64,000 nucleotides of DNA from positions 368,711 through 432,710 of the IMG/VR virus record IMGVR_UViG_3300015615_000629. The stretch is one strand, 5' to 3'. The notes under the pieces were generated by a model, which worked only from the letters and a program-made list of their open reading frames with translations, searched no databases and had not been told where the DNA came from. Of this stretch, positions 5,935 through 57,946 are shown one piece after another (positions within the stretch are counted from its first letter, which is position 1; every line of letters starts with the position of its first letter). This stretch comes from a virus (Duplodnaviria > Heunggongvirae > Uroviricota > Caudoviricetes). The translations under genes and the position numbers were made by a program.

Positions 5935-6786
5935 ATGGAATTTCGTCAATGGCTAGTAGAAATGCCGTTATCTCATTACGGCTGGAAATATAACGTTAAG
6001 GAACCATTTCCAAATCAAGCCAATTTTGAACGCATTCACAAAGTAAGAGAACCAAGGCAATTCTTTATTTCCGATAGAAAAAGAATCCTTTCTGTTAGGA
6101 ATAAATTTGAAGAAATACTTAATAGGACACCATTCAAATGGAACGTTATTTTCTTAGAATCCCCTCCGGAAAGAATCCATCAAGACGCCTTAAACTACAT
6201 CGAAGCAAATAATGTTCAAACCCAAGGACATATAACCTTTGTTAAAAATAGTTCTTCTGGAGAACAGTTTACTCCGTGGATCCTCTGTCATGTGATCAGC
6301 CATTCCCTAGACTCTGATATGTTCAATCCTACCAAACCAGTTCATAAAGAAAACATGAAATCAGGGTCTATAGTAAATGATTTGATCGGTGCATTGTCTA
6401 AAAAATTTAGCGAATTGGACTTATTTCCGCAACGCCTTTACGGTGTAGATCATAAAATATTAGATTTTTTAATCCCTTATATGCCATTCAAATCCGCTAG
6501 GACTAGCATGCAAGCCATGATTAAATCTGGTATGAATTTCGCCCAAAGTAAGGGAGCAATCCAAAGCAATAGTGAATGTGTCCATGAACTTTTAGCATAT
6601 TATCTCTTTAATTCTGGGAAAATTAAACTTCAGCAGATAAAAGAAGATCATCCCATAGAAGACCTGCCAAAAACATTTAGATATCCTTCAGATAACGATT
6701 TAAGAGCAATCGAAAAGACTATTGAAAATGTCTTTACTGCAGAACTAAGGGCAGCGGTTGGACATATAATATTTGATGCTTTCTAA
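5935..6786 (+). CDS. hypothetical protein with capsid-targeting-like N-terminus
   Basis: Starts MEFRQWLVE; TAAATA at 5924-5929. Confidence 0.65.
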   Translation: MEFRQWLVEMPLSHYGWKYNVKEPFPNQANFERIHKVREPRQFFISDRKRILSVRNKFEEILNRTPFKWNVIFLESPPERIHQDALNYIEANNVQTQGHITFVKNSSSGEQFTPWILCHVISHSLDSDMFNPTKPVHKENMKSGSIVNDLIGALSKKFSELDLFPQRLYGVDHKILDFLIPYMPFKSARTSMQAMIKSGMNFAQSKGAIQSNSECVHELLAYYLFNSGKIKLQQIKEDHPIEDLPKTFRYPSDNDLRAIEKTIENVFTAELRAAVGHIIFDAF

Positions 6787-7720
6787 GGGCAACCGCACCT
6801 TCGTCACAAAACAACAAAAAAGCCTTCCAAGTCCTGTCTAATTCGCTAGTTGTATCTTCCATCGATGGAATCTGCTGATGCGTTCCATATTCAACTACCA
6901 CGCTAAAACTACCGTGTTTATAATACCAATCTGCCTCTGTGCCATAAATGGGAGAATTGTACATAGTACACAACCTAATTAACTTATAATTAGACAATTT
7001 AGCCATTCTGCCAACAATGTCCTGATAAATAGCATCGTCCGGACAACGTTCATTTCTATCTCCCCAAGGCATGCCATATACTCTGCCGAAGGTGTGCCCC
7101 GCCCACACTGCTCCAAACTTCTCTTTCAAAACAAATTCTTTTAAGCATTCAACCGGTGGAATAGATTTTTTATCTGGATTTCTCTCTGTTGGAAAATCCC
7201 TATTTGGGTCAACTCCGTCCACATGTCTAGAATGCGGAAACGAATCTGGTGATACCACAGGAATGAAATAAATGTCTCTGCTATCTAAAAGTTCCGTAAC
7301 TTCGTCTTTCCTGCCATATTCTGATAACAAAGTTCCTATGTAACCCATTACAGCAGAAGTAGCCCAAGGTTCATTTCCATGAATACATGCTGTAATTAAA
7401 ACCTTTGGCTTGCCTTCTGTGCCTGTTCTAAAGAAATATAAGTCCTTGCCACGATTGCTTTTACCATAAGTCCCTACGGAACTCATCTCAGAAGATTCTT
7501 TTTCCCATGTTTTTAGTTGTTCTACAACTTTGTCATAAGCAAGATGCCCTGGAATCTTTGTAGAAATCTCAAACGATTCTGGCTGAGAATTCTCAAATTC
7601 AGTATAGGTTTCTCGATAATCTTGAACTAGAGGTTCAGATGGCTTGTTTTTGTCGAAGATTGCAAAAGCAAGTAAAACAGAAAGAAAAACCGTCCCTAGT
7701 TTTAGATATCGCTCCATCAA
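6734..7720 (-). CDS. exported M14 zinc carboxypeptidase
   Basis: N-terminal signal/TM; IHGNEP (HxxE), DPNRDF, third His in AGHT, C-terminal VVEYG. Confidence 0.85.
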   Translation of the reverse strand: MMERYLKLGTVFLSVLLAFAIFDKNKPSEPLVQDYRETYTEFENSQPESFEISTKIPGHLAYDKVVEQLKTWEKESSEMSSVGTYGKSNRGKDLYFFRTGTEGKPKVLITACIHGNEPWATSAVMGYIGTLLSEYGRKDEVTELLDSRDIYFIPVVSPDSFPHSRHVDGVDPNRDFPTERNPDKKSIPPVECLKEFVLKEKFGAVWAGHTFGRVYGMPWGDRNERCPDDAIYQDIVGRMAKLSNYKLIRLCTMYNSPIYGTEADWYYKHGSFSVVVEYGTHQQIPSMEDTTSELDRTWKAFLLFCDEGAVALRKHQILYVQPLPLVLQ

Positions 7721-7729
7721 AAGTATGTA

Positions 7730-8641
7730 TCATTTCAGAACTGCGAAATATTCGCTACCTCCCAGAAACGTCTCACAATTCTTAATCATTTTCTCTGGAT
7801 ACTCTTTGTACTTGGAAATCTCTACGGGTAGTTCGTCCAAGCCTCTTACCAAACCTCCTAACATGGCGTTTTCATAGAAACTCTTTGCCTTTCCAAATTC
7901 TTTCACTCGAAAGTAGATATCTCCCAACAAACACCAGAACTCAGCCATATGTGGATATTCCTTTAAGCATGGCAGCAAATGTTCTATGGCTTCCTTTATT
8001 TTATCTTGATAAAGGAATACCTGAGCCATTGTGTATAGACAAAATAGCCTAGAAGACCCTTTTTCCTCTAAAAACAAATAATGCTGTGCCATGTTAAGAA
8101 ATTCTTTTAATTTTCTGTTTTTAAGAAAATGACAAGCATAGTAATAATAAGGGTCTGATAAAGTAGGTTTTTCCTTTATCCAATCCTTAAGACATTGCTC
8201 CATATCGGGCTCATTAGGGGCTCCCAGGCTATAAATAAAATTATCTTTTAAGATTTTGGCATCTGAGGTCACATTTTCATAAACTGGGTTTTCATATTTT
8301 AAATTTAGATTTTTACTCCAAAGCCTAATCGGCTTGGTTAAGATGTCTTTTTCTATAATTTGAACTCTGTAACAACCTTCTGCTGGGATGTTCATATGTT
8401 CTATGATTTCCCACGGCTCTAAGTGCAATATCCATTTAGAGTTACATTCATCGGTTAGGAGGTTTCTGGCATGGCTTCGATTGTTTTTTGACTTTAGTAT
8501 TTTAACTTTAAATGCTTTTAGGATGGAGAGGGTGTCATCGGTCGAGCCAAAATCTACTGCCAGACAGGGATAATGTATAGATTTTAAACACTTTTCAAGT
8601 GTTTTTTGATTGTTCTTGGTTAGAAGGCAGACGTTTAGCAT
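7730..8641 (-). CDS. GT2-family glycosyltransferase with TPR repeats
   Basis: NVCLLTKN...LEKCLKS, VDFGSTDDT, followed by TPR-like helices. Confidence 0.75.
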   Translation of the reverse strand: MLNVCLLTKNNQKTLEKCLKSIHYPCLAVDFGSTDDTLSILKAFKVKILKSKNNRSHARNLLTDECNSKWILHLEPWEIIEHMNIPAEGCYRVQIIEKDILTKPIRLWSKNLNLKYENPVYENVTSDAKILKDNFIYSLGAPNEPDMEQCLKDWIKEKPTLSDPYYYYACHFLKNRKLKEFLNMAQHYLFLEEKGSSRLFCLYTMAQVFLYQDKIKEAIEHLLPCLKEYPHMAEFWCLLGDIYFRVKEFGKAKSFYENAMLGGLVRGLDELPVEISKYKEYPEKMIKNCETFLGGSEYFAVLK

Positions 8642-8777
8642 TAATTATCTTTTCAAAAGCTTTTCTTTGGGGGGTATTTTCAGGGTAATTTTTTGCAATT
8701 TGTACGTAGTTTTCAATGTTTTCGGGAGAATTGAGCATCTGTGTAAAAAATTTATTCAAATTTTTTTGTCTTAACAT
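8595..8777 (-). CDS. hypothetical protein
   Basis: CTAATATAG motif just upstream of ATG. Confidence 0.45.
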   Translation of the reverse strand: MLRQKNLNKFFTQMLNSPENIENYVQIAKNYPENTPQRKAFEKIINAKRLPSNQEQSKNT

Positions 8778-8801
8778 GTTATATCGTACTATATTAGACT
8801 T

Positions 8802-9356
8802 ATGGCGAAGAAAGAATACCTTAATAATAAGGCATTAGAATCTAAAATTATAAGTTATTTACAGATTCAATACGACGTAGCCAGATACAATCTACTTATA
8901 GAAGAATTAGAAGAAACAAAACAGCGTAAGGCGATTCGTCAAGTGGATTCATCAAGAGAAGACGGTTTAATTCCGCAATATCGTATTGATTTAGGCAAAC
9001 TTAAAAACGAGTTTTCCAAGTTTGAAGGGCTGTTAACCACTGATTTTTACGCTTTATCTACAAATTTCGCCCGCTACGTCGTCTATTCTAAGTTTTATCT
9101 TCTCGAAGAAGAAGATGCGGTTCAAGAAGCAGTTTCTACCTGTTTCGCCAAGATTAATCTGTTTAATCCTAAAAAGGGCAAAGCTTTTAACTATATGACA
9201 ACTTGTATTCATAACCATTTTAAACAACTTCACAGGGGAGCAAAAAATTTTGAGGAATTCAAGAAAAGATATCGTAACTATCTTAACTCAAAATATTATA
9301 AGAATTTGTCGAAAAATATGGAAGATATTCCAATAGCACAAGGAAAAATGGAATGA
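8802..9356 (+). CDS. phage late sigma factor (T4 gp55-like)
   Basis: EYLNNKAL and FNPKKGKAFNYMTTCIHNHFKQ parallel gp55 YVNNKEL and [23 protein letters not shown]. Confidence 0.75.
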   Translation: MAKKEYLNNKALESKIISYLQIQYDVARYNLLIEELEETKQRKAIRQVDSSREDGLIPQYRIDLGKLKNEFSKFEGLLTTDFYALSTNFARYVVYSKFYLLEEEDAVQEAVSTCFAKINLFNPKKGKAFNYMTTCIHNHFKQLHRGAKNFEEFKKRYRNYLNSKYYKNLSKNMEDIPIAQGKME

Positions 9357-9583
9357 GAAGTTTGATTAATGAACTAGAACAGCAAGAATTAATTCAAAAA
9401 CTATCAAATAATGGCTTCGGAACACTAATAGAAACACTGCTACTTAACGAAAATAAAGTATATACCAAAAAAGGACGATTGAACAAAAGCGGGGCTTGCA
9501 GAGTTTTAGGCTGTAAACCCAAAGAACTAGAAGACGCTTTGGAAAAATGCAAGAAAATTCTTGCTAACGACCTAGAAAACTAG
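9353..9583 (+). CDS. small HTH-like protein
   Basis: LNKSGACRVLGCKPKELEDALEKCK helix-turn-helix pattern; ATGA-coupled to sigma gene. Confidence 0.55.
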   Translation: MRSLINELEQQELIQKLSNNGFGTLIETLLLNENKVYTKKGRLNKSGACRVLGCKPKELEDALEKCKKILANDLEN

Positions 9584-10086
9584 AACGATTCGGTATACGC
9601 TCTGTCGTATCTCAAGGCTATTTCAGCAGTTACATATTCTGAGCTAGCCATATCCAATTCGCCGAATTCGATTGACTGCGGCCACGCATTATCAAATCTC
9701 CATCTTTCAATGATGTCTCCACAACCGTTATACAACTCTAATCTAGCATTTACGTAAAAGTCGGTATCTCCTGAAGGAGTCCAAGAACCTTGATTTGGAT
9801 CATAAATTCTCGACAACCATTCAAATACAACATTATTGCTAGAAGCCAAATCATAAAGAACAAGATTAACAGGCTTCCAGTCGGGACGCCCTGGGCGGTA
9901 AACTGTTTCATTCAAGCCAGGGATTTCTATTTCTCGAAAGTTTAAGCCAGGACGAGCACTTTTTACGGGTGGCAAGGCGTTAGTACCTTCAGCAGAGATT
10001 CCAGGTACGAAGAATAACCATCTGAATTTACGCTTAAAACACGTTGAATTCTTCTCTAAACCAAAATTCAATCCCATACCTGCCAT
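9580..10086 (-). CDS. tail tube protein paralog (T4 gp19-like)
   Basis: FKRKFRWLF, ARPGLNFREIEI, ERWRFDNAWPQSIEFGELDMASSE, LRYDRA; similar to 43060-43620. Confidence 0.85.
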   Translation of the reverse strand: MAGMGLNFGLEKNSTCFKRKFRWLFFVPGISAEGTNALPPVKSARPGLNFREIEIPGLNETVYRPGRPDWKPVNLVLYDLASSNNVVFEWLSRIYDPNQGSWTPSGDTDFYVNARLELYNGCGDIIERWRFDNAWPQSIEFGELDMASSEYVTAEIALRYDRAYTESF

Positions 10087-10088
10087 AG

Positions 10089-11006
10089 TTACTCCTTATA
10101 CAAATGATAGACAGATTTATCCCCGTGGTCTAAGCCTTTTCCTACAAATTCAATTCTGTTGAACCAATCTGTCCAGGGTTTTCCCAATTCAGTCAAATTC
10201 CTCGTGGTCTTGCCATTATCCTCAAATATTACCATTTTCGCTTTTTTAACCACTTCTGGTATATCTATGTGATAATTTAGTGAAAGAAAGAACACAATAT
10301 CCCAAATTCTTTCCGTATCGTATCCTTTGCTTAAATCGACTACCTCATAATCAATATTGAAGTTTCCTAAGTAGTTAGCAAGGTGTTTGGCAGCAAATAC
10401 AGGGCCTTCCATGTCTACTCCAAGGACTCTTTTGGCCCCATGATTGTCCGCATATCTACAGAAAAAGCCTCCTGCACAACCAATATCCAGAACCCATTTA
10501 TCTTTAAAGTCTACTTTTTCTAATTGCATGTAATTTATGCGGTCAAGACTTTTTCTTGGTCCGCCATTTAAACCAAGTTCTGGCACGGCTTGATAGTAGA
10601 TTTTACCATACTTGCCATCTTTGAAATAAATGTCCTTTATAGTTTGGGTGTAATCTCTGATAAATTCACAATTATAGAAATTAACTTCTTCTCCATCTGA
10701 TTCTTTAATTGAAAAACCATATTTTTCCGCAATAGATTTAATTTTTCCGTCACAAAAAACTTTTTTAGGGAATCCATCTATGGACTGGCAAAACTCTCCC
10801 GTGCAGGATTTTATCCCTGTTATTCGAGATACTTCTGGATTTTCTATATGAGCTATATTCTGAATCTTAGAGGCTTGCAGAACTTCTGGAAACCTCTTGT
10901 CGCATGGCCCCAAGAACCCTCCGGAAAAAACAACATTAGATTCATATGAATCGAAGATTTTGCCTTCTTTTGATTTGAAATATACTTCACGTTCATTGAG
11001 TATCAT
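10089..11006 (-). CDS. class I SAM-dependent methyltransferase with N-terminal extra domain
   Basis: DFKDKWVLDIGCAGGFF, RVLGVD motifs. Confidence 0.8.
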   Translation of the reverse strand: MILNEREVYFKSKEGKIFDSYESNVVFSGGFLGPCDKRFPEVLQASKIQNIAHIENPEVSRITGIKSCTGEFCQSIDGFPKKVFCDGKIKSIAEKYGFSIKESDGEEVNFYNCEFIRDYTQTIKDIYFKDGKYGKIYYQAVPELGLNGGPRKSLDRINYMQLEKVDFKDKWVLDIGCAGGFFCRYADNHGAKRVLGVDMEGPVFAAKHLANYLGNFNIDYEVVDLSKGYDTERIWDIVFFLSLNYHIDIPEVVKKAKMVIFEDNGKTTRNLTELGKPWTDWFNRIEFVGKGLDHGDKSVYHLYKE

Positions 11007-12405: not shown

Positions 12406-12455
12406 CGATTTATTACAGTAAGTACAAAGAATATATATTCCTAGAGAGGAATTAA

Positions 12456-12776
12456 ATGGATTACACAGGGACAGGTGGTTTTAGATTACGTGGCTGTGCT
12501 GTTGTTACTAAAACTGACACAATTATTACCAAATTTGAAGTGCGTGATTCCGCTTATGTCTGTGAAGACTCCCTCAATGGAATCTCAACTAAAATTTGGA
12601 TTAAAAAGATACTAATCAATTCAAATGTGATTGTTTATAAGGATACATACAATGAACTTTGGCTTGAAGATGAACTCTGTACGGCAGAAGAAGCATCTGA
12701 CAACATTACTGCTTATGAAGATTATCTTGCAAGAAAGTTAGAAGACTTGGCCGGTATTTGTCGAAAGGAAATATGA
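12456..12776 (+). CDS. hypothetical protein
   Basis: GAGAGGA SD and ATATATA motif upstream. Confidence 0.55.
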   Translation: MDYTGTGGFRLRGCAVVTKTDTIITKFEVRDSAYVCEDSLNGISTKIWIKKILINSNVIVYKDTYNELWLEDELCTAEEASDNITAYEDYLARKLEDLAGICRKEI

Positions 12777-14462: not shown

Positions 14463-14526
14463 GTTGTATTTAAACAAAAAAGGCTGGAATATTCCAGCCT
14501 TTTTTGTGACTACTTGTTTTTTATCT

Positions 14527-30546: not shown

Positions 30547-31050
30547 TTACCTCTTCGGGCCAGTTTTGAGTTTTATTCCCTTTAATTTCTCCATCCTTTT
30601 GTCGGGCTTGTCTTTAAGGGAATGCATAAGGTTTCTCAATTCTGTCGTAATCTCTGCGGCTGAACTTCCCTTGCACTTTTGGCTTGATTGAATCGATACG
30701 CTCCTGCGATCTTTGTTATAAAAGCCCTTTGAGATTATAAAGCTTCCACCATCGTGATCCGGATTGAAGCTAATTAGACCAATCCATTCACCATCATCCC
30801 AGTTTCTACTGGAAACCAGCATTCGGATGGGTTTTTCTTCATAAATCTGTTTAACGTGGTAGCCGTTTTGCTTTAAAGCCGCTCCCACAAATCCCAAACA
30901 GATTTTGGCAAAAGACTCCGCTATTTCCGGCAAAGAACTTCGGAAATTTACCTCTACGCTGTACCGAGAGGTAGATTCTGTAAGTAACTGATTAAGATCA
31001 GTTTGCTCAGTTATTGATTTAAATATGTCATTCCAGGCTTTAAAGTCCAT
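30547..31050 (-). CDS. hypothetical protein with capsid-targeting-like N-terminus
   Basis: MDFKAWND...TE start; CTAAATAA upstream. Confidence 0.65.
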   Translation of the reverse strand: MDFKAWNDIFKSITEQTDLNQLLTESTSRYSVEVNFRSSLPEIAESFAKICLGFVGAALKQNGYHVKQIYEEKPIRMLVSSRNWDDGEWIGLISFNPDHDGGSFIISKGFYNKDRRSVSIQSSQKCKGSSAAEITTELRNLMHSLKDKPDKRMEKLKGIKLKTGPKR

Positions 31051-31053
31051 TAC

Positions 31054-32697
31054 TTAGTTATTTAGGTCCAATCGCCAACGTTTTTTGCCACAATCCCATA
31101 TTCTTGCTAGGCCATTTTGAGCTGCCCACTCTCGTTCTGTAAGACCTGGAGGACAGTTAGTCAAAGCCTTTCTTTGGGATTGCTTTGAATGTCTTCTAGT
31201 TGGTTTATGAAAATTTACATAACAATAATCTTCACGAAGTTCTTCCTCTAATACAAAACCCAACTTGTCGTATATTGTACCGAGACTCCACCTGTTATCA
31301 CTCCAAGATATTATGGAATTGTATCCGTTTTGAATAGCCCATTCTTTACAATATTTTAATAGTTTACTGGCTCCCCCAACGACTTGTACACCATTTTTAA
31401 AAAACAACCTGTCCAGGGTTAATTTTTTGTTTCTTGGATGTCTTCCTAAAGACATACCCCCTATTATCTCGTTTTTATAGACTAAACAATAGAAAACGAG
31501 TCCTAAGTTATTCGAACCTTGAAGATGATATTTCTCACAAAAAATGTTAAAATCCTTTCTAGTAGATTCTACTATAGAACATTTTCTTGCAAATATTCTA
31601 TTACTAAATATTTTTAGATTAGATAGTAGAATATTTTTACATTGTTCTTGTCTTTTTTTCCATTCATCTTCGAATATGGTTATTAGTTGAATGCCTGATT
31701 CTTTGCAAATGCGATATTTTTCATAGTGATACTTTCTGTCTCTTGGCTCTAACGATAATTCATTGTGCCAAAACAACCCACAATATTCTATTCCCAAATT
31801 TAAATTTTCGTCAAACATATCGAGTTGTTTTGTTTTTAATATCTTATAACTTGATTTGAAATTAAATCCGTGAGAATTCAACCAATCCTGAATTTCTATT
31901 TGTGTTCTGCCATATTTTTGATTCTCTTTTAGACATAGAGTGCTTGGCACCCCATATTTTCTCAAACACGTCTCTTCGTATCTTTTTTTAAATTCAGCCG
32001 ACTGTGCGTAGTTTTCGACTCCATACCTTTCTAAATTGGTATTCTTAAATTTGGTTATAACGTCTTTGTTTTGATGCGGATGCTCAAATCCATATTTTTC
32101 TAGACATGTTTCTTTTCTTTGCTGCCAATACTCATCTGTCTGGCTATAGTTTTTTTTCCCATACCTTTCCAGGCATGTTTCATCTCTTTTGTGTAAAACT
32201 TTCTTGTTTTGCATTGGGCTCTCGTTGCCATATTTTTCAAGAGATGTTTTTTTATATTTTTCTAAAAAGTCTTCCGCTTGGGCATAATTTTTAACTCCAT
32301 ACTTTTCCGAACAAGTTTTGCGCTGTTTTTCTTTGATTTCTTCACATTGTAGTGGTGATTCGACTCCATACTGCTCTAAAAGTTTTTTCTTACGTTTATT
32401 TTTGAAGTCTTCGCTGGAATAATATTCTTCTGTACCGTATTTTTCTAAATTTGTAGATTTTTGCTTCTCTTTAAAAGACGTAGAAGTGAAGATGCATTTC
32501 GACCCAACAGTTTTTAGATTGACATCTTCTTGTTTGGCTTTTGTGCAATTTTTTGAACCGCAACTGTCTTTATCTATAATCTTGTTTAGGCGTGGTATAC
32601 TTTTCTTTACCCTATAAAATTCTTCGCCGCAATAGTCACATTTAAGCAAAACTTTTGTGCGAATTGTACATTGATCATAATTTTCTTGAAGTATCAT
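31054..32697 (-). mobile_element. free-standing homing-endonuclease-like gene with (T)xL[EK][KR]YG repeats
   Basis: Zn ribbon CDYC, about 9 repeats of TxLEKYG, Vsr/DUF559-like QLDMF...GIEYCGLFWH...ITIFEDEW, C-terminal GGASKLL...SWSD.RWS...DCG. Confidence 0.75.
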
Positions 32698-33631: not shown

Positions 33632-33756
33632 ACCGTATATATGGTTATGGATTGGCTAAAACAAAAATGGCTTTCTCTACAAATTATAACTATATTAATT
33701 TGGAGATATATTTTGGAGTCTTTTAAAGCAGTATTTGAATGGTTGAAGGATTAAAA

Positions 33757-36363
33757 ATGCTATCAAATTTTGAATTATATTTGAAAGAAAACTACCTTTA
33801 TCAGGAAATGGCTATTGAGGGAGATGTTCCCAAAACGCCGGTTCTCTTTAATGAAGATGACATCCGTTATCTTTATCAATTTCCTCCCAAATTCTGGATT
33901 CAGGCTTTAAAAGCACGTTACAACAACTTGCTATTAAGTTACAAAGAGCGTCAAGAAAAAGGACAAGAGATACCTGAAAAAGATGGAGTCAAGATTCAAT
34001 CTGGAAACAAAACATATGTTTTTCCGGTGAAAACGGGCATGAAAAAGCTCATCGATAGACTTGAAAAAGACTTTGATGTAGAAGGATTCTCGACTTTACA
34101 CCCGCACGAGCATGACAAATATCAAACCAGAGAAAAAAACGGTTTGCATGGATTTCCTTTGAATCAAAGGACCGTATCACCACACAACAGAGAAGAATGG
34201 TTTTCCAGTGGTTATGTTCCCCTTAAATACCACACCAAAAGCAAAGACAATCCAGAGGTAGGCGGAAACTCAAGTGCTGCAAGAACTCTTAGAAATTGGG
34301 AAGATATGTCTCAAGAAGGTTGGCTTGGCGATATAGCTCCAAACATGAAAGAATTCGATAAAAAAGCTAAGCACGCAGCCCCTCCGGAGTATCTACAAAA
34401 ATTAGGTTTTAACAGTTCAGATGGTACTATTAATTGGAAGTATTATTTGGTGGATTATGAGCATCGAAATGCTGAAGGTAAGCCAAGTTTAATTGCTCAA
34501 AACGAGTCTGGACATGTGCCGATTCTTTTGCCTGGAAAATTGATTAATTCTGCTTCGATGAGACAATACAACAAGAAGATTAAGGAGGCAGAAGAGGCAG
34601 AGGGCAGCGGTCAAAAAGAGAAGGGACAGGCTTTAAGACAAGAGGCAGAACAGATGAAAAAAGACGCTGCCAGACACGATGAATTCGCGTGGAATGTCCA
34701 TCGCCATAATTCAGCGAAGGATGCCGAAGGAAAGCCGATGTATTCCTCTCTGCATGGGAGAGTCAACACAGCAGGCGGTTTTAACCCAAATAAGGGATCA
34801 GCCGAGTCTTCTGTTCTAGAGAATCCAGAAGAGCAGGAAAAAGCATCTCAATTGTTAGCCAAATATCTTTTAGGCGACAAATACGAAGCAAGTAAAGATG
34901 CACATTACGTACTAGGACAAGATAGTAAAAGAACTCAACATGCCTTGGACAGTTTAAAGCATGAAATAGATACTGCCCGCTCAAGGGGTGACGCTGATAC
35001 CGCCAAACGTCTTGAAAAGGAACTAGAACAAACAAAATTAGGAAAATGGGTTCGTGGCGGCCCAATTCGTGATGGACTTCAAACATTCTTAAGAAAAGAC
35101 ATTTACGGAACACCTGAAGAAAAGGTTTTAAGTGGCTTATTTGATGACTTGGTGCAACAGGCCGCTATGGAAATCTTTACTAAAACAAAGGTTAAAGGGA
35201 TACGTGAATTCGTCGATTATCTATTAGGCAAAAATGACGATCCAAATTCCTACAAGAAATTTTATCAAGTTGTAAATGCCTTGGCTAGAGATTATGGCCG
35301 CAGAGCGGCCCAATTAGATTTTGGTCGTGGAACTAGAAGATTAAGAAAATCTCAATCAATGGTTCTTCGTCCCGAAGTTCATTCTTTATTCCAGTCTCTT
35401 GGCAATGAAGAAGGCGTATCAATGGTTGATTTGATTAAATCTTACGTAAGCCCTTCTGAACTAGGAGCAGCGGAAAGAGGACATGGAGCCAGAACTTCTT
35501 TAAGGAAGACTGGCGGTATTTTCTCGGATGAAATGATTAGTTTTGGCCATCAAATTAAGGCCATGTTGGGTCGAATTAAAGCCGCCGATCAAGCCATGCG
35601 TTCTTCGAGAACCGGCGATGAAAAGGCCGTCAAGGATGACGTAGCCTTAAGAATCGGACTGTTTAATAAGTTGGTTGACCTTTATATTGCCAAACAAATG
35701 GTTGATAATTCCCCTTGGAATATGGCAACTGCTTATGATTTTGCCGACCAAGAAATGCGTAAAATTCTTGTCGGACACGGTATCGAAGTATCCAATGCAC
35801 CAACAGATTACCGATCTAAGGGTGAAATTGGAGAAAAAGAACTCGAAAATCAAAAGCAAGAAAAAGAAATGATTCTTAAGCAAAAAGAACAAATTGACTC
35901 TTTAATTGCTAATCCAAATAGGTTAAAGGAATTAAGGGCTCAAGCAGACGCCACCCAAGACCCCAAAGAGAAAGAAAGATTAGGTCATATTATTCAAATT
36001 GCAGAAAAAGGTGCCGCAGACCGAGAAGCCGAACAAAATCCTATGGCTATGGCTGCCCGTGTAAGCGGACAACCCACGCAACAACAAACCCAAGACGTAG
36101 AGGCTCAAGCAGGTCAAGCACAACAAGATGTTGTAAGAAGATTAAGTTTAAATCCGTTGCAGTTAGCTCAAGCCAAAAGAGATGTTGAAAAGATCGACGA
36201 GCCAGACAAAAGAGCGACCTGGACAGCAATTATTGCTAAAGCCGAGGAAGAAGCTGCCCGTAGAAAGGCTCAACAAGCCCCAATGCAGCAGCCACCAGTT
36301 GCTCCAAAACCAGTCTATACGCCAGGAGCATCGCCATTAAGCCGCTTTAGGAAGCCTCAATGA
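33757..36363 (+). CDS. large hypothetical protein, possible internal virion protein
   Basis: MLSNFELYLKE start; helical, Q/A-rich C-terminus. Confidence 0.6.
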   Translation: MLSNFELYLKENYLYQEMAIEGDVPKTPVLFNEDDIRYLYQFPPKFWIQALKARYNNLLLSYKERQEKGQEIPEKDGVKIQSGNKTYVFPVKTGMKKLIDRLEKDFDVEGFSTLHPHEHDKYQTREKNGLHGFPLNQRTVSPHNREEWFSSGYVPLKYHTKSKDNPEVGGNSSAARTLRNWEDMSQEGWLGDIAPNMKEFDKKAKHAAPPEYLQKLGFNSSDGTINWKYYLVDYEHRNAEGKPSLIAQNESGHVPILLPGKLINSASMRQYNKKIKEAEEAEGSGQKEKGQALRQEAEQMKKDAARHDEFAWNVHRHNSAKDAEGKPMYSSLHGRVNTAGGFNPNKGSAESSVLENPEEQEKASQLLAKYLLGDKYEASKDAHYVLGQDSKRTQHALDSLKHEIDTARSRGDADTAKRLEKELEQTKLGKWVRGGPIRDGLQTFLRKDIYGTPEEKVLSGLFDDLVQQAAMEIFTKTKVKGIREFVDYLLGKNDDPNSYKKFYQVVNALARDYGRRAAQLDFGRGTRRLRKSQSMVLRPEVHSLFQSLGNEEGVSMVDLIKSYVSPSELGAAERGHGARTSLRKTGGIFSDEMISFGHQIKAMLGRIKAADQAMRSSRTGDEKAVKDDVALRIGLFNKLVDLYIAKQMVDNSPWNMATAYDFADQEMRKILVGHGIEVSNAPTDYRSKGEIGEKELENQKQEKEMILKQKEQIDSLIANPNRLKELRAQADATQDPKEKERLGHIIQIAEKGAADREAEQNPMAMAARVSGQPTQQQTQDVEAQAGQAQQDVVRRLSLNPLQLAQAKRDVEKIDEPDKRATWTAIIAKAEEEAARRKAQQAPMQQPPVAPKPVYTPGASPLSRFRKPQ

Positions 36364-46093: not shown

Positions 46094-46253
46094 GGAAATA
46101 TATATGAAAAAATGCAAGTATTTTGAAAAATACAAAGGGGTTTTTAAACCGCGTTGCGGCTGTTTAGCCTGTAACAAAAAATATAAGGAAGTTCAACTTG
46201 CTAAATTGAATTCACGTTAAACAGAATCGGAGATAATTGTGCTTAAATAATTC

Positions 46254-49050: not shown

Positions 49051-49066
49051 GTCAATTTCAGAAAAT

Positions 49067-49817: not shown

Positions 49818-49845
49818 ATCTTAGCACAACTGGAAATGTTGTCAA
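49818..49845 (-). promoter_or_regulatory. sigma70-type early promoter
   Basis: TTGACA-16nt-TAAGAT with TTGTGC. Confidence 0.75.
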
Positions 49846-49936
49846 GAAAAATTTTAAGTCCTTAGACACAAAGGACTTACGCCCAAGACCGCAAGCGGAG
49901 ACTCCATTTCTGGCTTTTGTCTTACTATATGAGTGA

Positions 49937-50179: not shown

Positions 50180-50208
50180 AAACCGAAATTTTCAGAGATA
50201 GATAAAGA

Positions 50209-50658: not shown

Positions 50659-50840
50659 AAAAATATTTTATCTCTTTTGCCGCTAGAACCATCTCTGGTA
50701 AAAGTTACTTTGGTAATGTAGAGTTGTCCTACGATAGTATCGTCTGTTATGATGATATTGTACATATTACCAAGTTGATATCTACCGCCAGAAATGATCT
50801 CTTTGACATAACCATAATTAATTGGAAAGAATTTGAATGA
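50655..50840 (+). CDS. hypothetical protein
   Basis: ATGA-coupled. Confidence 0.55.
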   Translation: MKKYFISFAARTISGKSYFGNVELSYDSIVCYDDIVHITKLISTARNDLFDITIINWKEFE

Positions 50841-51964: not shown

Positions 51965-51994
51965 TGACACCCGCCAGAGCAGGAATAATTGGAA

Positions 51995-52261
51995 CTATGA
52001 TTGGTCTGACGGTTGGGTTTGGATTGTTTTTGCTTCTGATTTAAGAATTCTTTTACGAATTAGAAAATACTTGTATCCAACCGTCCAAAAGGCAAAAACC
52101 ATAGCGATAAGCAATCCGGAATGGTAGTTTAATCCTGAGATACGGCTTAGACCTTCGGCAATCAACGCTCCGAAAATGCCTCCGAAGAAGAAAGCACCAT
52201 ATAGATTTATGGCGTCATTAAAGGACATTTTCTCAAACATATTACTTCTCCACATCAACAA
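51995..52261 (-). CDS. small membrane protein
   Basis: Two TM helices. Confidence 0.5.
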   Translation of the reverse strand: MLMWRSNMFEKMSFNDAINLYGAFFFGGIFGALIAEGLSRISGLNYHSGLLIAMVFAFWTVGYKYFLIRKRILKSEAKTIQTQPSDQS

Positions 52262-53090
52262 ATTGAACTACTGGACACGCTTTTTTCTTTATCGCAACAA
52301 GATATGTCCATAAAATGCCAAACCCAGACAGAACCTTAGCCGACCTTCCCATAAAGAGAAACGAGGGTTTTTTGCGAAAGAAAAATCTGAATTTGAGAGA
52401 AATCCTGTCGAAAAACGTTGGCTCGTAAATCTCTGGTCGAATTCTAGTTTGGGATTGTAGATATTTCTCTGTTTTAACTATTCTTACGCTTTGTCGTTTA
52501 TCAAACCATCTATCCATTTTGCTTATAAGATATTGGAAAGGCTTGGAACTAACTATAAAACCAAGCAATTTCACAAGCGACCATACGATGGCACAGGAAA
52601 CCGCTACAATGGATAAAACATATAAGATGGCAGACCAATAGCCCGATAGTAGCCAAACGAAGAATTTTCCTACTTTTCCAATTGCTAGAAAGATAAGCCA
52701 ACCAATATTCAGTATTACCCACCAAATGAATCCCAAAGTTGGCACTAATCCATAAACAAGAAAAAGCGTGATTAGGCCAACTGCACAACATATCAGTAAA
52801 CTAACCGCCCCCAAAACGATATTTCGAATAATATATGCATCTTTTTCTGGAAGAGAATAGTAGTTTCTAGTTAGATACGCTAAGACTTTCTTTGGGATAA
52901 AAAGCCTAGTTATAAGACCGAACAACCACAAAGGAGCGGTTAAAATAGATAGGAAAGTCAGCCAAAACGTAGTTTGTACGTATGGACACAGACTTGTTTG
53001 ATCGGGGATTCCAATTCCCCATAATCTCCTAATACGGCAAAAATAGTTAAAGTGCCAGCTATTTTTGTTAATTACCAGGACTGGATCCAT
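52242..53090 (-). CDS. multi-pass membrane protein
   Basis: Several TM segments. Confidence 0.65.
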   Translation of the reverse strand: MDPVLVINKNSWHFNYFCRIRRLWGIGIPDQTSLCPYVQTTFWLTFLSILTAPLWLFGLITRLFIPKKVLAYLTRNYYSLPEKDAYIIRNIVLGAVSLLICCAVGLITLFLVYGLVPTLGFIWWVILNIGWLIFLAIGKVGKFFVWLLSGYWSAILYVLSIVAVSCAIVWSLVKLLGFIVSSKPFQYLISKMDRWFDKRQSVRIVKTEKYLQSQTRIRPEIYEPTFFDRISLKFRFFFRKKPSFLFMGRSAKVLSGFGILWTYLVAIKKKACPVVQFVDVEK

Positions 53091-53413
53091 TTTTTCTTGT
53101 CTTTCTTCTCTACTGGCTTGTAGGTAATACCTGCTTCATTTTTTTCAATCGTATAAGCCCACCAAACACGTTTGACTGCCTTGTTTACAATTTCTGTTTC
53201 TTCCGGATTGGTCATAAATAAGGCGACCTTATGTCTGATATAATCTATTTCTGTATGTCTAAGTTCCCTTTCTAGTTCCTGTATTCTAGCATCGCGAACT
53301 GCTAGCGTTTCTTTTAACTCGGCGGCTTTACTTGTTTCGACTTTTGAATAGGCATAAGTGCAGAAACCAAAAAAGGCAGTTCCGGCGAGCATTGTGTAAA
53401 GGAAGTCTTTCAT
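53072..53413 (-). CDS. membrane-anchored coiled-coil protein
   Basis: N-terminal TM then coiled coil; GGAGA SD. Confidence 0.6.
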   Translation of the reverse strand: MKDFLYTMLAGTAFFGFCTYAYSKVETSKAAELKETLAVRDARIQELERELRHTEIDYIRHKVALFMTNPEETEIVNKAVKRVWWAYTIEKNEAGITYKPVEKKDKKKWIQSW

Positions 53414-53453
53414 TTGTTCTCCAGCAGAAGGCGTTTGGAGAACGCATTTTAGG

Positions 53454-53936
53454 CTAAATCTCAGTGGTTGTCAAATTCCTGAGTTTTTCGAGGATGGCAG
53501 AGTCGTGTAGGAGGTACTGAAGTCCAAAATGCTTCGGTTCTGTCTGTATTAGTTGGTCTAGACTAACCCAATTAAAGCCCGATGTTTCCCATCTTGAATT
53601 TTCATCGGGGCTTGGGTTAAACTTCATAGGAATTATCCCTAGAAAATTAGTATAAGTAAAATTCGTGGCGTGGAATTCCTTTAAGACAGATAGTTGCATC
53701 TGTCCGTGATAACCAGTTTCTTCTAAAAATTCCCTTTTGGCACCTGCTATCGGCGTTTCTGATCCGTCTAGTTTGCCACCAATAATACCATAGGTGTTTG
53801 GTTCATTTACATGTGGCGATCTAAGAGAGATAAGAAATTCCTTATCTTTCTTGGCAAATGCCAAAATACCGGCAGCTTCGGTTCCCCAAAACTGCTCTAG
53901 TTTAAGTAAATATAACCAATCTTCAAATCCACGCAT
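53454..53936 (-). CDS. Nudix hydrolase with capsid-targeting-like N-terminus
   Basis: GGKLDGSETPIAGAKREFLEETG; MRGFEDWL...LE start. Confidence 0.85.
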   Translation of the reverse strand: MRGFEDWLYLLKLEQFWGTEAAGILAFAKKDKEFLISLRSPHVNEPNTYGIIGGKLDGSETPIAGAKREFLEETGYHGQMQLSVLKEFHATNFTYTNFLGIIPMKFNPSPDENSRWETSGFNWVSLDQLIQTEPKHFGLQYLLHDSAILEKLRNLTTTEI

Positions 53937-54001
53937 TACTGCTTCAACAATTTAAATAAAATAACAAACAAAATAATCACAATTAAGAGAGTGATAAGCA
54001 T
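53936..54001 (-). CDS. 21 aa hydrophobic microprotein
   Basis: MLITLLIVIILFVILFKLLKQ; AAGGAGG SD; TAATG overlap with Nudix start. Confidence 0.65.
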   Translation of the reverse strand: MLITLLIVIILFVILFKLLKQ

Positions 54002-54035
54002 AAAACCTCCTTGTTAAACTATTTATGCGTCCAGA

Positions 54036-54063
54036 TTGACATTTAAGTGACTTGTGCTATTAT
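54036..54063 (+). promoter_or_regulatory. sigma70-type early promoter
   Basis: TTGACA-16nt-TATTAT with TTGTGC. Confidence 0.75.
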
Positions 54064-54079
54064 ACATTGGGAGATTAAC

Positions 54080-54232
54080 ATGAAACGCGGCGGAAATGAC
54101 TTTTTTGCGATGTCTGTTGCCACCTTTGGCATGATCGCCATTGGCATTTCTTACGGCGGTATTTTAGGCGGGTTGGTTGGCCTTTCCGTTGGTGTCGCTA
54201 CCACTACACTTGCCACGAAATTAAACAAATAA
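54080..54232 (+). CDS. small Gly-rich membrane protein
   Basis: GGGAGA SD; two GxxxG helices. Confidence 0.55.
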   Translation: MKRGGNDFFAMSVATFGMIAIGISYGGILGGLVGLSVGVATTTLATKLNK

Positions 54233-55137
54233 TGCTCTTAAAAGACCTACAAGATAGAAAAATTATCCACCCTCCGAGCTGGTTGCCTGACAACACTGTC
54301 TTTCTGGCAGTTGTCGGCTCCAATGCTTATGGCACTGCTACGGATACTTCTGATTTCGATATTTTTGGAATTGCCATCCCTAAGAAGGAATCGGTATTTC
54401 CACATCTGGCCGGTGTAATTCAAGGATTTGGAACTCAAATCGAACAATTTAATCAATGGCCACTTAAAAGCGAAAAAAGTAAGTGTTTTGACCCCGATGC
54501 TCTTGGAGGCAAGGGCAGAGAATACGATTTTACAATTCATAATATCGTAAAGTATTTTCAACTTTGCATGGAAAACAATGCAAATTGTTTGGATACATTA
54601 TTCGTTCCCTACGAATGTATTTTGCACTCAACTCAAGTTGGAAATATGATTCGAGAAAACAGAAAGTTATTCTTGAGTAAAGAATGTCTGGTTAAGTTTA
54701 AAGGCTATGCATTTGGGCAGATGCATAAAATGCGAACAAAAGAACCAACAGGCAAACGCAAAAAAACTAGGGATGCCTTCGGATACGATACGAAATTTGC
54801 AATGCATCTTGTGCGCCTTCTGGGAGAGTGTGAGCAAATTTTGACAATCGGCGAGATAGATCTAAGAAGGAACAACGAGCATCACAAAGCAATTCGCCGT
54901 GGTGAGGTTCCTCAAGAAGAAGTTATTGCTTGGGCTCAAGCCAAAGAGCGTCAACTTGAGGAATTAGCAGTAAAATCTGATTTGCCACAAAAAGCAGATG
55001 AGAAAGCAATTAAACAATTGTTACTTAATTGCTTAGAGCACCATTATGGTTCTCTCAAGGAAGCCATTGTTGTTCCAGACAACTATTTGTCTGGACTTAG
55101 AGAAATAAAACAAATTTTAGATAAGATTGGAGTTTGA
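54232..55137 (+). CDS. Pol-beta-superfamily nucleotidyltransferase (RlaP-like)
   Basis: VVGSNAYGTATDTSDFDIFGI (GS...DxD), N.N..D.LF, YDTKFAMHLVRLL. Confidence 0.85.
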   Translation: MLLKDLQDRKIIHPPSWLPDNTVFLAVVGSNAYGTATDTSDFDIFGIAIPKKESVFPHLAGVIQGFGTQIEQFNQWPLKSEKSKCFDPDALGGKGREYDFTIHNIVKYFQLCMENNANCLDTLFVPYECILHSTQVGNMIRENRKLFLSKECLVKFKGYAFGQMHKMRTKEPTGKRKKTRDAFGYDTKFAMHLVRLLGECEQILTIGEIDLRRNNEHHKAIRRGEVPQEEVIAWAQAKERQLEELAVKSDLPQKADEKAIKQLLLNCLEHHYGSLKEAIVVPDNYLSGLREIKQILDKIGV

Positions 55138-55597
55138 CATGATTTCGATACTTTCACGTTTTGACATTAGAAGAATTGTAAATAAAGAACCAAACCAGCA
55201 TGTTTGCATCGTAATATCCGAGCCAGAACATGGACATGCTGTTGCGGATATTTTACCATTGTGCAAAGAGGTTCTGCATCTTGAATTTCACGATGTAAGT
55301 TATGGCAAGGCGGGACCGACCCTTGAACATGTGCAGAAGGCTATTGATTGGGCAAAAGAGAGGATGGATGCTCATATTTTGGTTGCCTGTGCGGCTGGTG
55401 TATCGAGAAGTTCGTCAATTGCCTACTTGATACAATGCGCTAGAACAGAGCCAGAATCTGCTGCTCTTATCCTTGATCCGGAGGTTCATTATCCGAATAC
55501 ACTTGTAATCGAACATGGGCGGAAAATCTTAGGGGAAAGTATCTGGCCGCCTGTCAAAGATTTTTACAGTAGGGCTCTTGGCTATTGGGGCGAATAA
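55127..55597 (+). CDS. tyrosine/dual-specificity phosphatase-like protein
   Basis: LVACAAGVSRS (CX5R), LEFHDV, HYPNTLV. Confidence 0.85.
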   Translation: MEFDMISILSRFDIRRIVNKEPNQHVCIVISEPEHGHAVADILPLCKEVLHLEFHDVSYGKAGPTLEHVQKAIDWAKERMDAHILVACAAGVSRSSSIAYLIQCARTEPESAALILDPEVHYPNTLVIEHGRKILGESIWPPVKDFYSRALGYWGE

Positions 55598-55645
55598 GAT
55601 AAAAATTGATCTATTTTTTATTGGTTCGACCGCTATATTAAGGGA

Positions 55646-56092
55646 ATGGAAACCCTTGCTAGCAAAAAATTAGTTCTACCCGCATCAGAAGTTACGGCTA
55701 CTGCTGAAATCTCTGGCACCTGTTCTCGCCAGCACGAAGACGGATGGAAAATCAAGGGACGGATTCACGAAAATTATTTCACTTGGGTAGAAGAATTCTA
55801 TGCTGAACATCCCAAACTGGGTAAGGTTTGGGGTAGTTTTTCTAAAAAAATTTATACGACTTCTTCTAAGGCGTATGAACACTTTATTGAACACCATCCG
55901 CCTGATTATCTTGAAACAGATTCTCACGGATCGTCTAAAAATTTTGCTCTTTGCATTCACAAAGAACCTGATTGTAACGATCTTTGTTTGGGGACTCTTT
56001 ATTCTGTTCTGTCAACAGATGAAGAATATCTGCGTGTCATAGATGAATCGGGAGAAGATTACCTTTATCCGGTTAAGTATTTCATTTATTGA
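55646..56092 (+). CDS. two-domain hypothetical protein
   Basis: C-terminal LRVIDESGEDYLYP module. Confidence 0.6.
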   Translation: METLASKKLVLPASEVTATAEISGTCSRQHEDGWKIKGRIHENYFTWVEEFYAEHPKLGKVWGSFSKKIYTTSSKAYEHFIEHHPPDYLETDSHGSSKNFALCIHKEPDCNDLCLGTLYSVLSTDEEYLRVIDESGEDYLYPVKYFIY

Positions 56093-56099
56093 GTACCAT

Positions 56100-56462
56100 A
56101 TGCTTATAAAAAACATGAAGCTTTTACGACTGGACGCTCCCAACAAAAACGGTGACGTTTTTCCTTCTAGTTCCGTTCTGCCAATCGTAAAAAATGAATA
56201 TTTTGGTCATATTGAACTCAAAACCCGCAAGACTTCCCAAACCAGCCATAAAGTATTTAACATCCGCACCGAATCGGATGAATCTGGAACCTTTTTAGTA
56301 GGCGATATTAAGATATTAAATACGCCAGCTGGTTTGGTTCTTCAGGATGCCCTTAATTCTGATAAACTTATCTCTATGGCTCCAAGACTTACGGGCAGGG
56401 TGGAAAATGGGGAGATAAAGCCACCCATCTCTATTCTTTCTATTGATATTGTTGAATCATGA
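56100..56462 (+). CDS. degenerate prohead-protease-like protein (T4 gp21 fold)
   Basis: PNKNGDVF, SHKV, GDIKILNTPAG, MAPRLTG in place of SSRGxG. Confidence 0.55.
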   Translation: MLIKNMKLLRLDAPNKNGDVFPSSSVLPIVKNEYFGHIELKTRKTSQTSHKVFNIRTESDESGTFLVGDIKILNTPAGLVLQDALNSDKLISMAPRLTGRVENGEIKPPISILSIDIVES

Positions 56463-56595
56463 ACTATCCCACATTGGGATTTCCTGCTTCGCTTACAGTT
56501 GCCTTTTGTCTATAATGACAAAATAAGTCTTACACCATATCCACAGGCTTTTTATTTCCGGTCGTTCCGACCTAGAAGATAATCTAATATAGTAT

Positions 56596-57315
56596 TCAAA
56601 AATTATTTATCATAGCGTACAAATCGTCTAAATTCTTAATTGTATCGTTATGTGGAGCAACCATCAAAATATTATTGGGATTCATGATAAAGTAAGTTAA
56701 TCCTCCCAAGTCACCGGATTCTTTTCTTATTTTCCTAGATTCTGTAAAGACCATTGCGTCGTAACCGCTCTTTTTTATCTCATCTACAAATTGTGGCTTG
56801 TCTAAAAGCCACCAAATATCTTCCATTGCCAATTTAGTCTTTTTTGTTCCGTTATAAGAATTGACTAATTGTAGTCCTATTTTTTTTGCGGTTAATGGAA
56901 TATTGTTAACATTTAACGGATTCTCTACTTTGCAATAAGCGTCATAAACCTTATAATCTCTGCCATATTTCGATCTATTGCTTCCAAAATAATTAGCGAT
57001 TGGCTTGGAGTTCGTCATAAAGACTCCAAGATTTTCTACGTCATACATTGCACCTAAAAATCCCAAACTTCTTTTTCCTGGCATGGGTTTTAATTCTTTT
57101 AAATCCATATTTGGAGAGCCATGATGCAATAGGATTGGATTAGAAGTGCCGAGTTTCTTAGCATAGCCTTCTCTATTAATTTCTTTAACCCAATTAAGGA
57201 CATTTTCTCGTCCTGCTGGGCCGATTTGTTTTAATCTATCGTTAAATTCTTGTTGAGAGTTTATTCCCTGCAGTTCTTGAGGTAACATAGACTCTAGCCA
57301 CAACTTAAACTCCAT
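56596..57315 (-). CDS. ADP-ribosyltransferase-like protein (ART-PolyVal-like) with capsid-targeting-like N-terminus
   Basis: LHHGS, GVFMTNS..IANYFG, VYDAYCKVENPL, GYDAMVF; MEFKLWLE start. Confidence 0.65.
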   Translation of the reverse strand: MEFKLWLESMLPQELQGINSQQEFNDRLKQIGPAGRENVLNWVKEINREGYAKKLGTSNPILLHHGSPNMDLKELKPMPGKRSLGFLGAMYDVENLGVFMTNSKPIANYFGSNRSKYGRDYKVYDAYCKVENPLNVNNIPLTAKKIGLQLVNSYNGTKKTKLAMEDIWWLLDKPQFVDEIKKSGYDAMVFTESRKIRKESGDLGGLTYFIMNPNNILMVAPHNDTIKNLDDLYAMINNF

Positions 57316-57946
57316 ATAAGCCTTTTCCCTTCCAAAGCATTTTATCTATCTTATGTGGGTGCTTCTTCATGAAGTCATCTGTGGTTTTCATTACATCTGG
57401 CGGCTTTACGCCTGGATTAGATTTTGCATAAAATTGCATTAAAAGTTGTCTTTTGTTCTTGTCCTCTTCTGGCCCAAAATCCCTTGGCCAGACTTTACCT
57501 TTTCTGAATACGTCTATCATTTTATTTCCAGTTACAACAAATTCTATTCCTTGATTATCCAAAGAAAACCAATCTCCTGGCTCTGCTTGCATGGGGGCCT
57601 CTTGAGGATATCTGGATTCCGAATCGTCTTGTCTTTTCTCGAAACCACGCTCATCTCCTACTTTAATCAACGCACCATAAGTCTTTATCTCATCGTCAGT
57701 TACATCATGAAACGTCTTGTTTAAAAGTCTTGCCACATGAGAAATTATGGCATTTAAGGCTCTTTGGAGGCTTCTTTTGTCGGTAGCAAAGACGGCCGGT
57801 TCTAATAAGTCTGCATACTCATCCCCATAAGCATCTTGTGTAAAACCACCCACATCAGGAACTAGTCCAATTTGCTTAATGTTTTTGGCGGCGACTTTGG
57901 TTGTGCCGTGCCAAAGGGACGTTTCCATAAAATTCCTGAAGTCCAT
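57305..57946 (-). CDS. ADP-ribosyltransferase-like protein with capsid-targeting-like N-terminus
   Basis: LWHGTT....NIKQIGLVP, AVFATD; MDFRNFME start. Confidence 0.6.
   Translation of the reverse strand: MDFRNFMETSLWHGTTKVAAKNIKQIGLVPDVGGFTQDAYGDEYADLLEPAVFATDKRSLQRALNAIISHVARLLNKTFHDVTDDEIKTYGALIKVGDERGFEKRQDDSESRYPQEAPMQAEPGDWFSLDNQGIEFVVTGNKMIDVFRKGKVWPRDFGPEEDKNKRQLLMQFYAKSNPGVKPPDVMKTTDDFMKKHPHKIDKMLWKGKGLYGV

Follow-up and report, generated by a model that had tools for sequence, protein, structure and literature searches.

Numerous otherwise unrelated proteins of a huge tailed phage begin with the same short peptide, which is probably an expanded version of the capsid targeting sequence (CTS) of phage T4. 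The phage is represented by IMG/VR record IMGVR_UViG_3300015615_000629 (572,167 bp, direct terminal repeats, rated complete, GC content 39.6%). The peptide, hereafter called the tag, was noticed in a stretch of 64,000 nucleotides comprising bases 368,711-432,710 of that record, hereafter called the window. In our reading, at least 33-36 proteins carry the tag, a gp21-type protease would cut it off after a conserved glutamate, and the tagged proteins would make up a set that is packaged into the head and probably injected. We favour this reading because the genome contains a T4-type head module, because the conserved positions of the tag match those of the T4 sequence, and because the tag stands strictly at the N-terminus and includes the glutamate. 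The unrelated and basic bodies of the tagged proteins, the late-promoter-type box in front of many of their genes, the recurrence of the tag in related genomes and the type of cargo speak for it as well.

Gene calling with a simple codon-usage model gave 916 genes (92.8% coding). A position-specific model of the tag was built from the whole genome, anchored on the aromatic pair F-x-x-[W/F] and used with a threshold of 10 bits. Its scores are bimodal, with a background that fades below about 9 bits and a second mode at 13-25 bits; Phe and Trp contribute 4.3 and 5.1 bits, respectively. The consensus is M-[D/E/K/T]-F-[K/R]-x-[W/F]-[L/I/V]-x(0-2)-E. The threshold is reached by 36 genes genome-wide, 33 of them with both aromatics, F at position 3 or 4 and W/F three residues further on. 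The tag starts at the first ATG of the frame in 34 of these genes and at the second ATG in the remaining 2. Given weaker further examples (MALKSFEQWLQE, MKTFIDYLLEQE, MKNFFEWSSRLNE and MDLTFRQYFE), the true number of tags may be near 50.

A first-pass annotation of the window had listed 12 tagged N-termini. All 12 were recovered in the sequence where it had placed them and on the strands it had given, and each opens an open reading frame (ORF) of 53-868 residues (Table 1). It had presented them as a genome-wide set; the set is real, but it is an undercount, since 12 applies to the window and 36 genes reach the threshold in the whole genome. The strength of the 12 differs. Eight score 13.6-23.3 bits (those starting at 5935, 14462, 15117, 18984, 46093, 50209, 57315 and 57946), and four stay below 10 bits (31050, 33757, 36360 and 53936). 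The tags at 31050 and 36360 are rescued by clearly tagged orthologues, whereas those at 33757 and 53936 are not and must be considered doubtful. The annotation had also proposed scanning the proteome with a motif model for positional enrichment. With candidate windows defined as a Met with F two to four residues on, such a scan found 37 of 252 start-proximal windows (in the 36 genes) at or above 10 bits, compared with 0 of 322 internal ones (Fisher p = 1e-14). A strict regular expression matched 25 predicted N-termini, compared with 0.34 expected from shuffled N-termini and with 4 of 2968 internal Met residues.

When tags were chosen without using the glutamate, Glu was found at +2 to +4 after the second aromatic in 25 of 30 cases, where about 20% are expected, and a hydrophobic residue occupied +1 likewise in 25 of 30. 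The conserved Glu is an independent feature and not an artefact of the model. At the nucleotide level, synonymous codons vary: the anchor Phe is encoded by TTT 23 times and by TTC 17 times, and AAA, AAG, AGG, AGA, CGA and CGT all occur at the basic position. This free variation rules out a nucleotide-level signal. BLASTP comparison of 40 tagged proteins without their first 16 residues gave no match at E < 1e-3, in agreement with the earlier statement that the rest of each sequence is unrelated. The signal is thus a peptide under selection at the protein level, not a nucleotide signal or a common domain. The bodies of the tagged proteins, taken from residue 13 on, are basic: their median isoelectric point is 8.6, compared with a median of 6.3 for all other proteins of the phage (p = 6e-4).

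In T4, the first 10 residues of internal protein IPIII suffice for loading, as summarized in a review of L. W. Black's work; mutagenesis of IPIII mapped the main targeting determinants at residues 4 and 7 and those of processing at residues 8 and 10, and a protein with Asp at position 10 is still loaded but no longer cut (PMC9026906). IPII and IPIII in the T4 record begin with MKTYQEFIAE, and IPI begins with MKTFKEF and has a Glu further on. The conserved positions of the tag, i.e. the aromatic, the second aromatic at +3, the hydrophobic residue at +4 and then Glu, correspond to IPIII residues 4, 7, 8 and 10. The tags of this genome closest to T4 are MKTFKEWIKE, MKTFNEWLE and MKTFLQWAE.

Components of a T4-type head are encoded in the same genome (coordinates in this and the following paragraph are those of the genome). 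A Gp23 major capsid protein (Pfam Gp23, 282.6 bits) is encoded at 469,218-470,429 on the minus strand, and a T4-type portal (Portal_T4, gp20; 234.6 bits) lies close to the capsid and protease genes. The prohead protease, encoded at 471564-472280 on the minus strand, is of the gp21 type: it matches Peptidase_S77 with 92.3 bits at a cut-off of 27, and S80 only with E = 0.003. Located between the protease and capsid genes is a scaffold candidate, a coiled-coil-like protein of 311 residues with 20 [LIV]-x-E sites; T4 gp22 has 20 such sites in 269 residues. Hydrophobic-x-Glu sites near the N-terminus are also present in other T4 head proteins and in their counterparts in this genome, where the capsid protein begins with MEGNSRFLNE and the protease with MRLLTE. 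The nearest GenBank record to the capsid protein is LR756511.1, an unannotated 595-kb 'uncultured phage' with 69% identity, and the identity to cultured T4-like phages is about 30%. On these sequence comparisons the genome is classed as a huge member of the T4 superfamily.

Two further genes of this region lie outside the window. Between protease and portal, roughly at the place of T4 gp67/gp68, a gene on the minus strand (472289-474106) encodes a protein of 605 residues, which might be a core protein. Its N-terminus, MKRKLIKFDAFEKLQSE, contains a tag-like F-x-x-F ... L-x-x-E pattern that is shifted seven residues from the Met. An ORF of 154 residues that adjoins the portal gene (476469-476933, minus strand) can be aligned to the N-terminal region of the major capsid protein of the same phage, the common stretch lying around ISIPL-x-RIY, and then ends; it could encode a truncated capsid or vertex paralogue. 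A tblastn search of the genome for a homologue of T4 gp55, the late sigma factor, yielded a sole match (E = 0.023), which is located inside a dUTPase-like gene and was rejected as spurious. Megablast of an 8-kb piece of the window against GenBank phages gave no match. In a search of sequencing runs, one wastewater DNA run contained 0.05 of the sampled words, and no RNA run was listed.

The tag is associated with a box of the late-promoter type. The sequence TA[A/T/G]ATA peaks sharply 4-5 nucleotides upstream of start codons (55 genes) and is found within 3-9 nucleotides of the start in 85 genes. Genes with the box 4-5 nucleotides before the ATG usually have no Shine-Dalgarno site. A box within 3-9 nucleotides precedes 22 of 39 tagged genes compared with 63 of 877 untagged ones (odds ratio 16.7, p = 2e-14). 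It is also present in front of the genes for the capsid protein and the scaffold candidate, and of several very large genes that are probably structural. The first-pass annotation had placed such a box before most of its 12 genes, which is partly borne out: it stands 4-8 nucleotides upstream in 6 of the 12 and 26-27 nucleotides upstream in two more, and four have no box within 45 nucleotides. In T4, late promoters consist of an 8-bp box that spans -13 to -6 (PMC2988020). With this spacing, a box ending 5 nucleotides before the ATG would place +1 on the A of the start codon. We infer that late mRNAs of this phage may be leaderless, with a 5' end at the A of the ATG or beside it.

Related genomes carry the tag as well. 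A DNA scan of IMG/VR for M[DE]F[KR]xWLE gave 66 loci. In 39 of them the match opens a frame of 40 codons or more at its first ATG, and the same box often stands 4-5 nucleotides upstream. A Gp23-type capsid gene is present in 15 of 30 such contigs, ten of which score 272-298 bits like the present genome, and CheckV completeness mostly implies genomes of about 500 kb. Consequently, most of these contigs belong to one clade of huge T4-like phages. The model derived from the present genome detected 11 tagged frames in a 299-kb fragment (GC 49%, S77 protease, Gp23 277 bits) and 30 tagged ORFs in LR756511.1 (GC 42%); in both relatives, all tags are located at first or second ATGs and many stand behind the same box. 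The strict DNA pattern, M[DE]F[KR]xWLE, found nothing in LR756511.1, where the model finds 30 tags; hence an exact pattern is too narrow to gauge the distribution. Starts of the type MKTFxEW are common at frame starts in IMG/VR (38 of 82 among the matches listed). Selection of tags without the glutamate, repeated in relatives, gave Glu in 10 of 14 cases for LR756511.1 and in 8 of 11 for a third genome. Among orthologues with 30-60% identity, the anchor residues persist, with the remainder of the tag drifting, in 6 of 9 cases from the 299-kb fragment and in 7 of 10 from LR756511.1. Four further huge-phage contigs (340-436 kb) contain 7-14 M-x-F-[KR]-x-W starts each, compared with 0-2 for reversed-pattern controls.

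The 239-residue putative ADP-ribosyltransferase (ART) encoded at 56596-57315 of the window has four homologues in a large protein database (44-53% identity); all four are tagged, and M1, F3, L7 and E8 are invariant. In one of them, P0004, a PARP-like domain (PF00644, precomputed) stands as an insert immediately behind the tag; the tag thus stays at the very end, and two ART-type domains follow one tag. The tag is gained and lost among homologues: the homologue of the AAA_33 protein is untagged in the 299-kb fragment and tagged in other contigs. Two tagged proteins, one from the present genome (214059-214649, plus strand) and one from the 299-kb relative (at 78870, minus strand), resemble each other only in a C-terminal EGQHR stretch, with 44% identity over 50 residues; both tags, MDFRVWLE and MQFKLWLE, are clear. 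We take the EGQHR motif to be ParB/Srx-like.

Pfam families were found in 5 of the 32 tagged proteins scanned, namely HTH_24, NUDIX, ART-PolyVal (twice) and AAA_33; for the other 27, Pfam and PHROGs gave no family. The AAA_33 protein, a kinase, is encoded at genome 266,659-267,252, and the second ART-PolyVal protein at genome 219,692-220,687. For the ART at 56596-57315, the match to Pfam ART-PolyVal (PF18760) reaches 31.1 bits (E = 4.5e-7) at a gathering cut-off of 31.2, and PF18760 is precomputed for this protein and for 3 of its 4 homologues. The cargo named by the first-pass annotation comprised a DNA-binding protein, a Nudix protein and two ART-like proteins. The DNA-binding protein, the Nudix hydrolase and one ART-PolyVal protein were recovered. 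For the other proposed ART, encoded at 57305-57946, Pfam and PHROGs gave no match and the Atlas leads are weak (PARP, DarT and Arr; feature scores 0.87-0.88, template-modelling score about 0.43); its WHGT motif matches the PARP-like insert of P0004 with E = 0.13. An Atlas search with a 508-residue tagged protein returned nothing usable.

The reading frame of the latter gene (57305-57973, minus strand) has three possible starts, at ATG 57973, at 57946, where the tag begins and a box stands 4 nucleotides upstream, and at 57928. The ESM Atlas record of this gene starts at residue 7 of the tagged form and so drops the tag, which illustrates that automatic gene calls can clip, extend or hide such starts.

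Table 1. Tagged genes and late-promoter-type boxes in the window (positions are those of the window; scores are those of the tag model).
Feature	Position	Strand	N-terminus	Score (bits)	Remarks
Tagged gene, 283 residues	5935..6786	+	MEFRQWLVE	21.4	Weak metalloprotease/LPD1-like Atlas clusters only; no HExxH motif
TAAATA box	5924..5929	+			5 nucleotides before ATG 5935
Tagged winged-helix DNA-binding protein (HTH_24), 90 residues	14190..14462	-	MDFKEFVIQE	18.1	Orthologues begin MDGFQQYF, MDGFKEFFAE
TAAATA box	14467..14472	-			4 nucleotides before ATG 14462
Tagged gene, 196 residues	14527..15117	-	MITFKQWQMLNE	18.0	No known family
Tagged gene, 81 residues	18984..19229	+	MKTFLQWAE	16.3	Orthologues MKTFTQWAEE, MVKTFMQWAEE
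Tagged gene, 167 residues	30547..31050	-	MDFKAWNDIFKSITE	<10	Weak by motif model; orthologues MKNFSEYREE (299-kb relative) and MLNFKDYVEE (LR756511.1), both clear tags
TAAATA box	31059-31064	-			8 nucleotides upstream of 31050 start
Gene with doubtful tag, 868 residues	33757..36363	+	MLSNFELYLKE	2.8	In-frame ATG upstream at 33739; homologue in LR756511.1 without aromatic pair
Tagged gene, 53 residues	36360..36521	+	MNFKKWLE	<10	Orthologue in 299-kb relative MKTFRQWLSE
Tagged gene, 82 residues	45845..46093	-	MRTFENFQE	13.6	
TATATA box	46099-46104	-			5 nucleotides upstream of 46093 start
Tagged gene, 149 residues	50209..50658	+	MDFREFIE	18.1	
TAGATA box	50199-50204	+			4 nucleotides upstream of 50209
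Nudix hydrolase with weak tag, 160 residues	53454..53936	-	MRGFEDWLYLLKLE	2.4	N-terminal extension; homologue in LR756511.1 without the 17-residue extension
Tagged ART-PolyVal-type ADP-ribosyltransferase, 239 residues	56596..57315	-	MEFKLWLE	23.3	Top motif score in genome
Tagged gene, 213 residues	57305..57946	-	MDFRNFME	17.4	Tag followed by WHGT; possible ART fold
TAGATA box	57951-57956	-			4 nucleotides upstream of 57946 start

Taken as a T4-type targeting sequence, the tag would act as follows. T4-type late promoters, in many cases directly adjoining the start codon, would drive late transcription of the tagged genes. The tag probably forms a short amphipathic helix whose F, W and L share one face, and would dock the protein onto the scaffolding core of the assembling prohead; the gp21-type protease would then cut after the conserved Glu. 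The freed, mostly basic proteins would stay beside the DNA inside the head and pass into the cell together with it. Core binding, cleavage, packaging and injection are steps that we infer from sequence features and from the T4 precedent. A predicted complex of the protease, the scaffold candidate and the first 45 residues of the tagged ART had a score of 0.00; the prediction was made without controls and speaks neither for nor against binding. The computational tests that bear on the capsid-targeting reading of the first-pass annotation (head module, T4 position match, N-terminal position, link to the late box, orthologues) all agree with it.

Several observations weigh against this reading. 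About half of the tags have Glu directly after W-L, so that position P3 of the putative cleavage site is Trp and not the Leu/Ile of the T4 cleavage logo. The scaffold candidate matches no Pfam family. A nearby late box is missing in 17 of the 39 tagged genes, and some homologues are untagged, e.g. the Nudix protein of LR756511.1. Furthermore, searches with S77, S80 and the protease of the present genome as queries detected no S77/S80 protease in the four contigs of 340-436 kb, one of which is rated 97% complete. Either the protease of these four is too diverged to be detected, or the tag can work without it. Two of the four have only a diverged Gp23-like gene, which in one of them encodes just 317 residues; no protease was found among the neighbours of this 317-residue gene.

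The contigs without a detected protease would suit a different role, in which the tag would direct or dock its protein to a shared partner other than the prohead core. This partner could be a chaperone, a site in the membrane or the large E2-like/ubiquitin-like tagging system that belongs to the phage itself. We regard such a role as unlikely, since the tag matches the T4 CTS residue for residue at the mapped positions, a T4-type head module is present in the genome and the conserved Glu suits a Glu-specific protease. Near the E2 array (beyond 537 kb), moreover, only one tagged gene is located, and its tag is weak. The spacing of the late box raises another explanation: 22 of the 39 tagged genes start 3-9 nucleotides, mostly 4-5, behind it, so that their mRNA probably begins at or beside the AUG. 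The tag might then be a by-product of translation initiation on leaderless late mRNAs, as a favoured 5' coding sequence or nascent peptide. This is very unlikely, however, since such an N-terminus is missing from 63 untagged genes whose box and spacing are the same, and 17 tagged genes have no nearby box, some of them with Shine-Dalgarno sites instead. In addition, synonymous codons vary while the amino acids stay, and the downstream Trp and Glu are kept in relatives with GC contents between 40 and 49%.

The scattered distribution of the tagged genes, which occur singly or in pairs and often with a box of their own, could also mean that the promoter-plus-start segment is mainly a recombination joint for gene swapping and that the peptide has little function. 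Homologous bodies with and without the tag, and the whole extra domain inserted right behind the tag in P0004, would be in line with this. However, the nucleotide sequence of the tag is not conserved and thus offers little homology for recombination, and retention of the anchor residues in orthologues at 30-60% identity indicates selection on the peptide; hence, we consider a mere joint highly improbable. Apart from the initial resemblance, nothing argues for a chance pattern or for a paralogous family with a common N-terminal domain. Chance is ruled out by the 25 observed N-termini against 0.34 expected and by the complete absence of internal candidates of at least 10 bits, and paralogy by the lack of BLASTP similarity beyond residue 16 among the 40 proteins. 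The probability of either is negligible.

T4 packs three internal proteins and Alt, and IPI is an anti-restriction factor (PMC3012670). If the tag works as in T4, the present phage and its relatives would inject ten times as many kinds of protein, most of them of no known family. In our estimate, chances are about even that capsids throughout a whole clade of T4-like phages of roughly 0.5 Mb are loaded in advance with dozens of different proteins, amounting to about 4% of the proteome, and that the complete injected set can be read from a nine-residue tag. In this case the tag would provide a cheap filter, based on sequence only, for the proteins of uncultured huge phages that are most likely to act in the first seconds of infection, and dozens of dark-matter families could be assigned to the interior of the virion as their probable location. 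A large catalogue would likewise result, listing candidate effectors for immediate-early host takeover and anti-defence: ARTs, a Nudix protein, a kinase, a regulator that binds DNA and some 30 families for which no fold is known. In the open-access literature searched, no account of dozens of such tags in huge phages was found. What is new is the scale and the lineage; the mechanism is already known. A review has already suggested that the CTS serves T4-like phages for the loading of varied proteins, and reuse of the T4 CTS as a delivery tag is already practised (PMC9026906).

Compared with the T4 system, the tag is likewise a sequence of about 10 residues at the extreme N-terminus of otherwise unrelated basic proteins, with two aromatics three residues apart, a hydrophobic residue and Glu; MKTFKEF of IPI is nearly identical to MKTFKEWIKE of the present genome. 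A gp21-type protease, a candidate scaffold and a gp23 gene are combined in one genome in both cases, and expression is late, here presumably from late-type boxes. In contrast to T4, where the aromatics are Y and F, they are F and W/F here, and Glu is mostly found at +2 (W-L-E), which gives a tag of 8-9 residues. At least 33-36 tagged genes are spread over about 400 kb, compared with three internal proteins in T4, many of the tagged proteins are enzymes of 150-500 residues, the promoter abuts the ATG, and the system is known from its sequence alone.

T4 Alt is an ART that is packaged in the head and injected, and its propeptide of 7 residues is removed by gp21 (PMC9026906). Arriving with the DNA, Alt acts on the host immediately. 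The two tagged ART-PolyVal-type proteins of the present phage resemble Alt as ARTs with a short N-terminal tag, the putative propeptide. They belong to a different ART family, and their Pfam scores for ART-PolyVal are at or just under the cut-off. In the phiKZ-like giant phages phiKZ, 201phi2-1 and SPN3US, ejection or inner-body proteins are cut after Glu by the gp175/gp245 prohead protease and ejected (PMC5694885, PMC9026906). Loading of many different proteins into a giant head, cleavage at Glu and ejection are common to these phages and, as proposed here, to the present one. Their propeptides, however, are mostly longer than 100 residues and have no short common tag, and these phages differ in lineage and in protease family, which is S80-like.

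A further parallel concerns the polyvalent proteins of phages and conjugative elements, which, according to Iyer, Burroughs, Anand, de Souza and Aravind in 2017, are said to travel with the incoming DNA and to act early. Pfam lists such domains under the names ART-PolyVal and LPD1. The types of effector domain are the same, with ART-PolyVal and an LPD1-like lead in the present genome. Whereas these domains are fused in one giant polypeptide in the polyvalent proteins, they are encoded here by separate small tagged genes, with the exception of P0004.

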